Shown here piece after piece: positions 1-15,799 of a stretch of 15,799 nt of DNA. Made by a program: the position numbers and the translations under genes. Position 1 is the stretch's first letter, and each line of letters begins with the position of its first letter. Below the pieces are notes generated by a model. The model was not told the origin of the DNA. It searched no databases and worked only from the letters and a program-made list of their open reading frames with translations. Origin of the DNA: an uncultured archaeon (GTDB lineage: Archaea; Asgardarchaeota; Thorarchaeia; Thorarchaeales; Thorarchaeaceae); NCBI GenBank assembly GCA_964354495.1, contig CAYHAA010000028.1:1-15799 (forward strand), given 5' to 3'.

Positions 1-138
1 ACCACCTTCTACCCAAGCATTGCACCACGAGTGATGTGGTCCGTCCTCTGGCTGACCATAGGTTTCACCTACATCATCTGGCCTCTCCTGTCAAGTCCTA
101 GGACCAAGGACGCTACAGTAAGTACTAACTCCAATTGA
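1..138 (+). CDS. 3' end of a hypothetical membrane protein (truncated by window edge)
   Basis: Frame +1 is open from base 1 to TGA at 136-138 and reads TTFYPSIAPRVMWSVLWLTIGFTYIIWPLLSSPRTKDATVSTNSN*: one hydrophobic helix plus a polar tail. Confidence 0.5.
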   Translation, partial: TTFYPSIAPRVMWSVLWLTIGFTYIIWPLLSSPRTKDATVSTNSN

Positions 139-200
139 ATATACTCGATTAGTCACAGAGGAACAGTTGTTGCTTCTTGAGTGAATAGAAGGAGAAGATA

Positions 201-224
201 GTGCGCCTGCCGGGACTCGAACCC
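201..224 (-). repeat. att-like duplicate of the tRNA-Gly 3' end (T-arm to acceptor stem)
   Basis: gtgcgcctgccgggactcgaaccc at 201-224 is identical to 817-840, inside the tRNA gene; 26/27 identity if extended to 227/843. Confidence 0.88.
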
Positions 225-231
225 CGGAGAA

Positions 232-729
232 TCATTCCATCAACTCATGGATTCTGCTTCTATGGGGCCAAAGGAGCACAAGGGAGCAAGTGATTTGATG
301 CACAAGAAGTGGGCGCATCTGATACGTGTAAAACTCCTCCACTCTAAGAATGTTGATACCCGGAGTCAGTACAAGAAGGAACGCGCTTAACACTATAATC
401 AGAAGTCCCTTTCGAAAACTGATTCTATTGGTTAGAACTAGCCATGATATGATCGGTGACAGGGTCCCAATTATCGATACTAGAAGTGTGACTGGACTAA
501 TGTAAGGAAACAACAACTCAAAAGTATCCCATTGTGGAGCCAGATATGTCGGCCTGTTCCACTCAATGGCCCAGCAAGTGCCTACGAATCTTGTTTGAAT
601 GAACACTGTGTCAAGAATCGTGTGTTCTCCTGCACCGAAGGTCTCTGATTCCAGAGTAGTTGGAGATAGAATGGTAATAAGGAATAGAACTAGAACTACT
701 CCTCTATGCAGTTTTTCATTACCTCCCAT
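232..729 (-). CDS. Hypothetical integral membrane protein (about 4 hydrophobic segments), cargo of the mini-islet
   Basis: 165-aa ORF with ATG start; hydrophobic stretches VVLVLFLITIL, LLFPYISPVTLLVSIIGTLSPIISWLVL, GLLIIVLSAFLLVLTP and LLVHQITCSLVLLW. Fills most of the space between the repeats. Confidence 0.75.
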   Translation of the reverse strand: MGGNEKLHRGVVLVLFLITILSPTTLESETFGAGEHTILDTVFIQTRFVGTCWAIEWNRPTYLAPQWDTFELLFPYISPVTLLVSIIGTLSPIISWLVLTNRISFRKGLLIIVLSAFLLVLTPGINILRVEEFYTYQMRPLLVHQITCSLVLLWPHRSRIHELME

Positions 730-814
730 ACTTCGTCTATTGTTACCAAATCAGAATATACTTTGTTACAGGCAAGAAGATGTACTAAGTTATAGTCTTG
801 AGAAGAGAAAAGAG

Positions 815-919
815 TGGTGCGCCTGCCGGGACTCGAACCCGGGCCGGATCCGTGGCAGGGATCCATCATAGCCCCGTCGCCGAGGTCGCAGAAACTGAGA
901 CCTCATAGACAACAGGCGC
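815..919 (-). tRNA. tRNA-Gly(GCC), CCA encoded, with a 30-nt intron at 876-905 (tRNA position about 14/15)
   Basis: Minus strand: acceptor GCGCCTG/CAGGCGC, anticodon stem GATCC/GGATC with loop CT-GCC-AC (anticodon 854-856), T-arm CCGGG-TTCGAGT-CCCGG, then A73 and CCA. Removing 876-905 restores D-loop AGGGGCTA and a 75-nt mature tRNA. Confidence 0.93.
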
Positions 920-11979: not shown

Positions 11980-12153
11980 TGGGACGAGCGGGTATGAGCA
12001 TAAGCTCTAGCTGGCATTGAAATAGCACTATTGGGGCATCGCGAGAAGCGGCAGCACATCAGCTCTTCCGATTGAGAAAGACTCACTCCTTCTCATGTAG
12101 GAGACTCGTTAGCAGGTGTGAAATCTGCAAATTGAGATGGTCTTGGAGCTAAA

Positions 12154-12293
12154 TGGTGGGCCGGACGTGATTTGAACACGTGACCACCGCACGTTTGAAC
12201 GTGCGTGGAAGTCAAGCACTTATGTCAATGCGGTATTTTCTAACATTCCAGAATGACTCTAGTCTGTTCATAGCCGAGCTAGACCACCGGCCC
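12154..12293 (-). tRNA. tRNA-Val(GAC), CCA encoded, with two introns: 32 nt at 12237-12268 (about 23/24) and 30 nt at 12193-12222 (37/38)
   Basis: Minus strand: acceptor GGGCCGG/CCGGCCC, anticodon stem CCGCA/TGCGG with TT-GAC-A (anticodon 12224-12226), T-arm ACGTG-TTCAAAT-CACGT. Removing both inserts gives a 78-nt cloverleaf. The 37/38 intron forms a BHB with central helix TTGA/TCAA. Confidence 0.92.
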
Positions 12294-14308: not shown

Positions 14309-15757
14309 TTAATATCCAAGCTCTTTGGCTTTCTGGAAAGCTCTTTTTGCTTCACTCTCTCGTCCCAATGCATCAAGTGCTACAGCAAGGTTATTCCAAA
14401 ATAGTCCTTGATTGGGATCGATCTCAACAGCCTTCGACAATGCCTTCGCTCCCTCTGCAAATTCATTCCGCAGAATCTGGGCTACACCAAGATTAAACCA
14501 ATTAAATGGATCATTCGGATCGAGTTCTGCTGCTCTCCTGAATGGATCTTCTGCATCCTCTGGCCTTCCGAGTTTGCCCATTGCTGCGCCAAGATTACGC
14601 CACGCACGAACATCCCCGGGATTGATTTCGGCCGCTCTTTTCGATGCTTCTGCACTCTCAGCAGATTTGCCTTGCTCAAGCAGTGAGTCACCAAGATAGA
14701 ACCAAGCCACCGCATCTCTGGGATTGAGCTCAGTCACTCTCCTAAATGGACCTTCTGCCTCCTCATATCTTCGCAGCTTGCGCATCGCAGAACCCAGATT
14801 GAACCATGCATCAACAAAGGCGGGATCAATTTCGACGGCCTTCCTCGCCGCCTCCGCACTCTCAGCATATTTACCCTGTTCATACTGTACAATCCCCAGA
14901 CTGGCCCATGCCTCTGCATGTTTTGGGTCAAGCTCAGTCATTCTTCTAAATGGACCTTCTGCCTCCTCGTATCTTCCGTGTATGTACATTGCGCCACCTA
15001 AACTGTACCATGCACTAGTATACATGGGATCAATCTCGACTGCTCTTCTTAGTGCATGTATCGCCTCATCGTTTCTGTTCAGTTTTTCAAGGACAAGTCC
15101 TAAGGTACGCCATCGCTCAGCGTGTGAGGGATCAATGTCCACAGCCTTCCGGTATGCTCTTTCTGCATCAGAATGTCTTTCTTTCTCCCACAATGCTCCT
15201 CCGAGAAGATACCATGCCTTTGCATAGGTGGAATCCAACTTCGTGGCTCTCTCGTACGCCTCTTCCATCTCATCATGTTTGCCTTGGTGACTTAGTATCA
15301 TTCCAAGGTTCGTCCACGCTACGGCATTCTTCTCGTCTAGCTCGATTCCTCGTCGGTATGCCTTCTCTGCTTCAGTATACTTGTCCTGGCCGAAATAGAT
15401 ATCTCCGAATTTCTGCCATACGCCCGATGCTTGAGGATTGAGCTCGGCTGCTTTTCTGACTGCATCTTCTGCCTCTCTGAACCTTTTCTGGAGAAGCAAA
15501 TTGTTCGCTAGGTTCAACCATGTGAACCACTGCTTTGGGGCAATCTCTACAGCTTTTCTATGATTAGTCTCAGCTTCGCTCGTTTTCCCTTGTGCATCCA
15601 AGACCAGCGCAAGGTTTGTCCATCCACCTAGCTCCGATGGTCTTTCAAGAACTGCTTTGCGCAATAATTCCTCTGCTTTACGGAGTGATTCCTGAGCCTC
15701 AGCATGCATTCCTCTCTTCATTTGTTGTTCGGCGGCTATAATCAACTCATTCGACAT
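14309..15757 (-). CDS. Tetratricopeptide-repeat protein (about 14 TPRs, no other domain)
   Basis: Consecutive 34-aa units AWxxLG...A...FRRAxELxP. ATG 15757 follows GGGAGATAGG; the track start at 15787 is also possible. Confidence 0.93.
   Translation of the reverse strand: MSNELIIAAEQQMKRGMHAEAQESLRKAEELLRKAVLERPSELGGWTNLALVLDAQGKTSEAETNHRKAVEIAPKQWFTWLNLANNLLLQKRFREAEDAVRKAAELNPQASGVWQKFGDIYFGQDKYTEAEKAYRRGIELDEKNAVAWTNLGMILSHQGKHDEMEEAYERATKLDSTYAKAWYLLGGALWEKERHSDAERAYRKAVDIDPSHAERWRTLGLVLEKLNRNDEAIHALRRAVEIDPMYTSAWYSLGGAMYIHGRYEEAEGPFRRMTELDPKHAEAWASLGIVQYEQGKYAESAEAARKAVEIDPAFVDAWFNLGSAMRKLRRYEEAEGPFRRVTELNPRDAVAWFYLGDSLLEQGKSAESAEASKRAAEINPGDVRAWRNLGAAMGKLGRPEDAEDPFRRAAELDPNDPFNWFNLGVAQILRNEFAEGAKALSKAVEIDPNQGLFWNNLAVALDALGRESEAKRAFQKAKELGY
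14727..14976. repeat. Internal DNA direct repeat in the TPR gene, 204-bp period
   Basis: 14727-14772 vs 14931-14976: 43/46 identical. 204 bp equals two TPR units. Confidence 0.85.
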
Positions 15758-15799
15758 GACCCTATCTCCCTCGGAATTTGGATACATAGCTTCACTATT

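Follow-up and report, generated by a model that had tools for sequence, protein, structure and literature searches.

Several known systems gather accessory genes at one chromosomal site. At the attachment (att) sites of integrative and conjugative elements (ICEs) and integrative mobilizable elements (IMEs) of Streptococcus, cis-mobilizable elements (CIMEs) take part in accretion and mobilization: they are flanked by att sites, lack recombination genes and form tandem stacks, and their integrase is presumed to act in trans. Integrons have reportedly been found in archaeal metagenome-assembled genomes (MAGs), and SSV-type integrases are said to capture genes in archaea, with the integrase gene split across two att copies. 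The tycheposon islands of Prochlorococcus are built by successive site-specific integrations that leave partial tRNAs between modules; tycheposons carry a tyrosine recombinase and often a replication module, and integrase-less pieces have been read as remnants (Hackl et al., bioRxiv 10.1101/2020.12.28.424599). Disruption of tRNA genes by mobile elements has been modelled as a source of tRNA fragments and of new tRNA introns at integration sites (Sugahara et al. 2012, PMC3293823), and the insert in Caldiarchaeum described there encodes a recombinase (PMC3293823). In one paper on Asgard mobile elements, a search for such arrays turned up at tRNAs only larger elements bearing an integrase or a giant gene. 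Here we analyze the left end of contig CAYHAA010000028.1 (C28) from an uncultured Thorarchaeaceae archaeon (GCA_964354495.1; in the following G000, a 3.3-Mb MAG of 51 contigs, 97.7% complete). The whole contig of 15,799 nt is called the window. With a probability of roughly 0.6 we consider positions ~185-846 to be a self-contained gene cassette that site-specific recombination has placed in the chromosome at the 3' end of the tRNA-Gly(GCC) gene.

A repeated tRNA 3' end and the cassette that it encloses

Positions 201-224 of the window are identical to positions 817-840 over 24 nt, with a start-to-start spacing of 616, and the extended segments 201-227 and 817-843 match at 26 of 27 positions. 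Exact 24-mer repeats are expected by chance in 15.8 kb at a rate of ~4e-7. The 24-mer is present exactly twice in the whole assembly, and in the 51 contigs no third copy with up to 4 mismatches is part of this tRNA. The inner copy (817-840) is the 3' end of a tRNA gene on the minus strand at 815-919 (Rfam RF00005 match at 818-919, 42.7 bits, E 2.5e-6; encoded CCA at 815-817), so that the duplicated tRNA-Gly 3' end proposed from the sequence alone is confirmed. Manual reading of the anticodon loop (CTGCCAC) assigns the gene to Gly(GCC). G000 holds one GCC anticodon arm followed by a T-arm, making this the sole GCC isoacceptor gene of the assembly. The sequence-only reading had called the tRNA at the right end intact; the tRNA itself stands, to which has to be added that a non-canonical intron of 30 nt in the D-loop (876-905, minus strand; seen as an insertion in the Rfam alignment, its limits set by the G011 tRNA, which lacks it) interrupts the gene, which thus appears to be intact only once spliced. 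ARAGORN missed the tRNA with default settings and with option -i called it Arg(TCT) with a false intron; Gly(GCC) was obtained from the Rfam model together with manual reading.

The outer copy (201-224, minus strand) corresponds to tRNA positions 51-74 and forms the outer att-type junction. It comprises three T-stem bases, the T-loop, the 3' strands of the T-stem and of the acceptor stem, A73 and C74. Identity begins at G51, 3 nt ahead of the T-loop, as had been stated from the sequence alone. The displaced copy then reads on as ACTA rather than ACCA and hence lacks the CCA. On the minus strand both copies are followed by the pyrimidine-rich runs that had been noticed before (TATCTTCTCCTTCTATTC and CTCTTTTCTCTTCTC). 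The pyrimidine-rich trailer beside the displaced end (170-200, minus strand) includes a motif, (g)atagaagga(g), that is common to the outermost fragments of G011, G012, G014 and L060, and it probably represents the ancestral downstream flank of the tRNA gene. That the outermost fragment keeps this trailer across species fits its being the ancestral tRNA end.

Between the repeats lie 592 bp with a GC content of 42% for the cassette as compared to 49% for the window. The sole long open reading frame (ORF) between the copies, at 232-729 on the minus strand, encodes a small polytopic membrane protein of 165 amino acids (aa), here called A, with hydrophobic segments at ~7-29, 76-101 and 102-130 and the conserved motifs E-x-E..G-x-GE and YTY. 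A Pfam search of the protein gave no match. The cargo is thus one membrane-protein gene without an integrase, as previously claimed. All 20 homologues of A (62-100% identity) are hypothetical proteins, a protein atlas places it only in unnamed archaeal clusters, and a search for related loci with the protein returned one locus. Its ratio of nonsynonymous to synonymous substitution rates (dN/dS) of 0.2-0.5 indicates a real gene that appears to be under purifying selection. Positions 730-814 (minus strand) hold a tRNA trailer and promoter region borne by the cassette: in six units of different contexts this stretch is kept with the cassette and not with the neighbours. It contains a TATA-like box (AAAGTATATTC, 754-764) ~25-35 nt upstream of the ATG, which suggests that cassette A has its own TATA-like promoter.

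The borders of the unit were determined by comparison with A units elsewhere (blastn). Homology blocks between the window and A units in other contexts cover 187-846, 201-837, 185-846, 191-852 and 195-770; homology begins at 185-201 and stops at 837-853, and its full extent is 185-846 (minus strand), including both repeats and short trailers. Bounded by tRNA-Gly fragments, unit A has a length of 614-617 bp in at least seven assemblies (G000, G014, L053, L054, L055, L058 and L060), and on its right there follows the tRNA, a tRNA interrupted by T-arm insertions, or one of the cassettes C and D. Read in the sense of the gene, the alignments run from T-loop to CCA, through ~95 nt of trailer and promoter, to the ORF with its stop codon and, after ~5-8 nt, to the next fragment. 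Both junctions (stop codon to fragment, and CCA to trailer and promoter) travel with the cassette, and the sequence outside is unrelated between contexts. This is what would be expected from an integrated circle with a single att site between the 3' end of the gene and its promoter.

Modular joining is also seen in natural populations. Logan contigs matching the locus come from four runs of one soil-metagenome study and represent related populations at 88-99% identity; they are contigs and not reads from the source population. They break precisely at the borders of the repeats, at positions 189, 222, 811 and 837/843. The left flank and fragment (7-222) continue into other DNA beyond 222, the fragment with cassette A (189-802) is preceded by other DNA ahead of 189, and the matches of several contigs start at 810-811. 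One contig matches 693-837 with one mismatch, carries an insertion of 66 nt at 837/843 and goes on with a tRNA body of 88% identity. These contigs show modular joining at the repeats in related populations, not excision in the source population.

They also bear on the explanation that the repeat arose by misassembly or is a mere chance similarity near a contig end. The outer copy lies 200 nt from the end of the contig, and contigs often break at repeats. The architecture nevertheless recurs in independent assemblies from other samples, Logan contigs span 7-222 as well as 189-802, and the chance expectation is that given above. We regard artefact and chance as excluded.

Variation of the tRNA-Gly(GCC) locus among relatives

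We read the arrangement of the locus in ~25 Thorarchaeal loci from the genus (g1) and other genera. To the left, the end of contig C49 overlaps window positions 1-55 (55 nt, 100% identical), and 15750-15772 overlaps the start of C18; the contig order is likely C49-C28-C18. With C49 joined, the left side of G000 holds a flavodoxin-like gene, a 312-aa Amidohydro_2 protein gene, two small membrane-protein genes and the outer tRNA fragment. From the window through C49 to the amidohydrolase no further tRNA-Gly fragment, decayed ones included, was found left of the outer repeat. The array in G000 is therefore a single unit, and the idea that it runs on to the left of the window has to be abandoned.

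Throughout the genus the amidohydrolase gene lies to the left and genes for a 356-aa, a 238-aa and a rubrerythrin-like protein lie to the right, and the content in between is variable. With all arrays oriented as the plus strand of the window, f denoting a tRNA-Gly 3' fragment and u a cargo gene without a recurring family, labelled by length, the maps are f-A-tRNA in G000, f-B-A-tRNA in G011, f-C-f-A-u469-tRNA in G017, f-E-tRNA in G012, D-f-u223-f-E-f-D-tRNA'-u484-tRNA in G015, f-F-f-u327-f-A-f-u74... in G014, C-f-D-f-B-TM141-f-u162-f-u202-tRNA in G023, F-A-f-u480-f-u228-f-B-tRNA in G004, ...f-C-tRNA in G042 and u257-f-A-tRNA in G020. G001 and G002 have no duplicate; in G001 the gap between amidohydrolase and tRNA is 350 bp. 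The closest relative, G012, whose flanking proteins are 79-91% identical, has cassette E where G000 has A. The syntenic site thus holds from zero to at least four single-gene units, with up to four or five tRNA-Gly fragments.

Family order is permuted as well: B precedes A in G011 and A precedes B in G004, while C is proximal to the tRNA in G042 and distal in G017 and G023. A single ancestral array subject to differential loss cannot account for the permuted order of common families. In most units there is one gene, with unit sizes of 0.55-2.5 kb, a few contain several genes and reach ~4.8 kb, and the other families are modular in size like A (B 701-733 bp, C 1077-1207, D 2537-2552, F 1320-1449). 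For the pair G011 and G020, identity is 88% in the amidohydrolase and only 38% in A; the two subfamilies of A do not appear to track the flanking gene. At the same locus other Thorarchaeia genera carry tRNA fragments as well, with cargo such as a 551-bp unit (G066), a 3.8-kb ABC transporter operon (G080) or a gene for a 1557-aa protein (G072). Assigned by homology to ORFs of the G042 array and by start motifs, and not by a family scan, the cargo comprises NosD/beta-helix, FG-GAP, epimerase, GNAT, DUF4145, caspase, metallo-beta-lactamase, radical SAM, nitroreductase and Zn phospholipase C proteins and the ABC transporter operon; there is no recombinase among it.

Instead of a cassette that is fixed and syntenic in all relatives, we thus found permuted, empty and alternative alleles and the same unit in independent assemblies. 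Empty sites (G001, G002), different cargo (G012) and arrays elsewhere are what a comparison of related MAGs had been proposed to look for. Together with the recurring unit of 614-617 bp they support the suggestion of the sequence-only reading that this is a minimal integrase-less cassette and one unit of a tRNA-anchored cassette system.

The same comparison bears on the explanation, also raised earlier, that 201-840 is the scar which deletions have left of a larger island (a virus or plasmid) with an integrase, now fixed and inherited vertically as a relic. It would account for the classical layout of tRNA, cargo and displaced 3' end, integrases are sporadic within the class, and the divergence of A roughly matches that of the flanks for G011 and G017. 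Random collapse, however, would not yield one unit of 614-617 bp in seven assemblies with different neighbours. The arrays read are free of integrase genes, and where the class has integrase matches, these are on contigs without an array or at a great distance from one; the ORFs are intact and appear to be under purifying selection, family order is permuted, and G012 as the closest relative carries different cargo. Constant unit size, intact genes, the lack of integrases in the arrays read and permuted order disfavour the collapsed island, which we hold to be improbable.

Fragments in the arrays allow a further explanation to be weighed, namely that 201-224 did not arise by recombination and serves a split or trans-spliced tRNA as a functional spare 3' exon, or the cassette mRNA as a signal for processing or termination. 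The tRNA genes of this lineage are heavily interrupted (by the D-loop intron here, by a canonical intron or T-arm insertions in relatives), and the fragment stands directly past the stop codon and is followed by the pyrimidine run. Against it, fragments in arrays gather stem-breaking changes and have variable inner borders. A 3' end is already present in the intact tRNA, the displaced copy lacks CCA, and a conserved leader that could pair with a 5' partner was not seen beside the fragments; conservation upstream is that of the end of the cargo gene only. We give this explanation very little credence.

Interruptions of tRNA-Gly(GCC), as read in the window, L013, L011 and L033, differ between species: G000 has the D-loop intron, G011 a canonical 37/38 intron, and G001 both a canonical 37/38 intron and a D-loop intron. 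In G012 (L013 3623-3688), in G002 and in metagenome contigs the gene carries an insertion of 66 nt, apparently two introns near positions 48/49 and 53/54. This insertion coincides exactly with the cassette recombination junction (837/843). It bears on the view (PMC3293823) that tRNA introns are either a product of mobile elements or a barrier to them, and the locus offers a natural test of whether tRNA introns arise at integration sites or protect against integration.

Other tRNA ends were noticed in the course of the comparison. The outer fragment of G012 (L013 2926-2946) carries the acceptor sequence GCGGCCA, which is not that of tRNA-Gly(GCC) and belongs to another tRNA of the genus, located 5-6 kb to the left on the opposite strand with the anticodon loop CTTCCAA. 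This suggests an exchange between att sites of different tRNA-Gly genes with a common T-arm. Short contigs of G020 (C172, C192, C218, C220, C234, C281, C314, C334, C362), contigs C52 and C151 of G016 and C52 of G020 contain tRNA 3' ends of further acceptor types (GTGCTCCGGCC and GCGCCCCCGCC), either as several copies on the same strand at distances of a few hundred bp or close to where many short contigs end. It is probable that other tRNAs harbour cassette hotspots of this kind and that these break up the assemblies. In G000 itself, contig C1 has identical T-arm and acceptor ends at 33153-33175 and 33600-33622 (CCCGG-TTCAAAT-CCGGG-CGGTCCCG-CCA), 447 nt apart on the same strand, which may be a tRNA pair or another mini-cassette.

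Recombinase search, proposed mechanism and other features of the window

A six-frame search of the whole G000 MAG for the tyrosine integrase family PF00589 gave 0 matches. Matches were found in 8 of 28 genomes of the genus and in 29 of 87 Thorarchaeia genomes, none of them on array contigs or near arrays. Neither an integrase nor a visible fragment of one was present in the units of the array loci read. An integrase elsewhere in the genome with a matching att site, which had been suggested as a source of the activity, was thus not detected in G000, and the integrase contigs and loci read from genus and class have no tRNA-Gly att. Cas1 and Y1 transposase are absent from G000. It encodes two 201-aa IS607-like serine recombinases (on C22 and C24), which show no link to the tRNA-Gly site. 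IMG/VR was considered as a source of a helper element: the 24-mer occurs in 11 contigs, and the readable ones are phage tRNA clusters of other composition, unrelated to Thorarchaeal elements.

PF00589, which would include XerA, is missing from 58 of the 87 Thorarchaeia genomes and from 16 of the 24 high-quality ones; by this count Thorarchaeia seem to have no universal Xer-type dimer resolvase. Leftward of the array, at a distance of a few kb, there is a conserved gene for a eukaryote-type topoisomerase IB (670-678 aa; Pfam Topoisom_I; L011, reverse complement, 873-2885; L053 10950-12498; L077 1053-3089), and in G072 this gene ends 5 nt from the outermost tRNA fragment. Topoisomerase IB and tyrosine recombinases have a common catalytic fold. 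The position of the gene beside the array is probably mere synteny.

For the cassette reading we infer the following course of events. The free form would be a circle of ~615 bp. It would carry one att site mimicking tRNA positions ~51-76, a trailer and promoter stretch of ~95 nt, and one gene with its stop codon ~5-8 nt from att. Insertion would occur by crossover within the segment from T-loop to CCA, between the att site of the cassette and the tRNA gene, and the cassette would land directly behind the tRNA. Its att copy would complete the tRNA (817-840), and the old tRNA end (201-224) with the old trailer would be displaced outward. Repeated insertions at one site would stack cassettes with the newest beside the tRNA, and a crossover between any two repeats could remove or reshuffle units. 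A recombinase would be supplied in trans: as it is found neither in the cassette nor in the array and is not recognisable in G000, it would have to act in this way. The proposed crossover segment fits the T-loop sublocation class that has reportedly been defined for tRNA-targeting integrases.

A more specific version of this scheme, which we put forward only tentatively, is an integron-like system with a dock from T-loop to CCA of tRNA-Gly, a tRNA-end mimic on each cassette and a chromosomal, hitherto undescribed recombinase other than a canonical tyrosine integrase, whose events may seed T-arm introns. Candidate enzymes would be topoisomerase IB, small serine recombinases and extra RadA paralogues.

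Several observations weigh against the cassette reading. Apart from the complete lack of PF00589 in G000, neither the 24 integrase contigs of the genus nor the 14 integrase loci of the class show a tRNA-Gly-like att, a T-arm or flanking repeats of at least 18 nt. The divergence of A among G000, G011 and G017 (66-69% aa identity) is similar to that of the flanks, so that in G000 the insertion may date far back and have lost its mobility. Some neighbouring cassettes have no fragment between them (B-A in G011, A-u469 in G017, F-A in G004), which can be due to unit fusion or array decay. Finally, reads of the source population gave neither a circle junction nor an excised allele, public runs each holding at most 0.20 of the sampled words of the window.

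The acceptor-stem sequence of the fragments, which tracks the host tRNA and not the cassette, leads to the main rival, which is general homologous recombination by RadA, or gene conversion, between tRNA-derived repeats of 24-45 nt and the tRNA gene. The cassette architecture would be unchanged, no dedicated recombinase would be needed for units to be gained, lost or shuffled, and DNA uptake from relatives is possible. A matching integrase is absent in G000 and near arrays, the inner border of the fragments varies from tRNA position ~45 to ~57, and the copies in G000 are identical though the acceptor sequence differs among species, which fits gene conversion or homologous recombination. Homologous recombination, however, leaves unexplained how a mimic of the tRNA 3' end came to stand ~5-8 nt past the stop codon, with a constant junction, on unrelated genes. 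The precise bounds of the unit (614-617 bp in seven assemblies) also speak against it, and the breakpoints gather in the T-loop as with integrases of the T-loop class. We consider this explanation unlikely, if better placed than the collapsed island.

The consequences differ between the cassette reading with a dedicated enzyme and its main rival. If a dedicated enzyme exists, the recombination system would be new and might serve as a compact tool, its att site being ~26 nt long; if there is none, short tRNA-derived repeats alone can run cassette exchange.

Three further features of the window were recorded. A second tRNA-like gene lies at 12153-12290 on the minus strand, with the acceptor stem GGGCCGG/CCGGCCC, the T-arm ACGTG-TTCAAAT-CACGT and an encoded CCA. 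Its perfect 6-bp hairpin resembles the long variable arm of class-II tRNAs, and the region of the D-arm and anticodon contains ~60 additional nt. Neither ARAGORN nor Rfam gave a match for it; it is probably a multi-intron tRNA, perhaps for Ser or Leu. The GNAT acetyltransferase adjoining the tRNA-Gly gene is represented by two ORFs on the minus strand, 1037-1330 (97 aa) and 1358-1534 (58 aa). Its counterpart in G017 is a single 170-aa gene, and two ORFs are likewise present in one metagenome relative; the cause could be a frameshift, a splitting of the gene or a faulty assembly. Diverged tandem repeats with a period of 102 nt (14379-15475) lie inside an ORF for 492 aa (14309-15787, minus strand), situated at the contig's right end. 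With their period of 34 aa they are read as tetratricopeptide repeat (TPR)-like.

Comparison with known systems

Like the islands of the tycheposon and Islander type, the locus consists of an intact tRNA and displaced 3' fragments as direct repeats (201-224 and 817-840). As in those islands, newer insertions would push older ones outward, the cargo is accessory and the content varies between close relatives, with presence/absence polymorphism at one tRNA (empty in G001 and G002, other cargo in G012, arrays in G014, G015, G023 and G004). Both types of island carry a tyrosine recombinase, its gene usually beside one att copy. In contrast to them, the Thorarchaeal units of the ~25 loci read have no integrase, are mostly single genes with conserved borders and reside in an Asgard host.

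With CIMEs, unit A has in common that it is flanked by att sites and lacks genes for recombination or transfer. It differs in that no helper ICE or IME with an integrase for the same att was found among the 24 integrase contigs of the genus, the 14 loci of the class and the readable IMG/VR matches. With the SSV-type gene capture the locus shares foreign genes between tRNA-derived direct repeats in an archaeal chromosome, whereas the ORFs that cross the repeats (201-293, 814-960) are short and neither integrase halves nor a six-frame match to PF00589 are present. Unlike the insert of Caldiarchaeum, unit A has no recombinase. Unlike the parts of split or trans-spliced archaeal tRNAs, fragments of the 201-224 type are without a conserved pairing leader, their borders are variable and their copies decay.

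The likeness to integrons lies in the cassettes, which are mostly of a single ORF and mostly co-oriented, in the variable content and order at one fixed chromosomal site, and in the short site with hairpin potential, here the T-arm, at the end of each cassette. Differences from integrons are also found: no IntI stands beside the array (PF00589 being absent in G000 and in array contigs), the repeats are tRNA-Gly positions ~45/57-76 and not the imperfect inverted repeats of attC, the site is a functional tRNA gene that needs rebuilding, and cassette A seems to bring its own TATA-like promoter.

We know of no description of such integrase-less tRNA cassette arrays in Asgard archaea. Across the family there is a conserved site behind an essential tRNA gene where small accessory genes are exchanged, each as a discrete unit, and where an integrase was not found; the genes exchanged are those for surface and membrane proteins, for enzymes and for proteins resembling defence proteins. 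In comparison with the systems described so far, the locus is an archaeal, integrase-less, single-gene cassette hotspot at tRNA-Gly(GCC) and an integron-like variant of tRNA-anchored island building.

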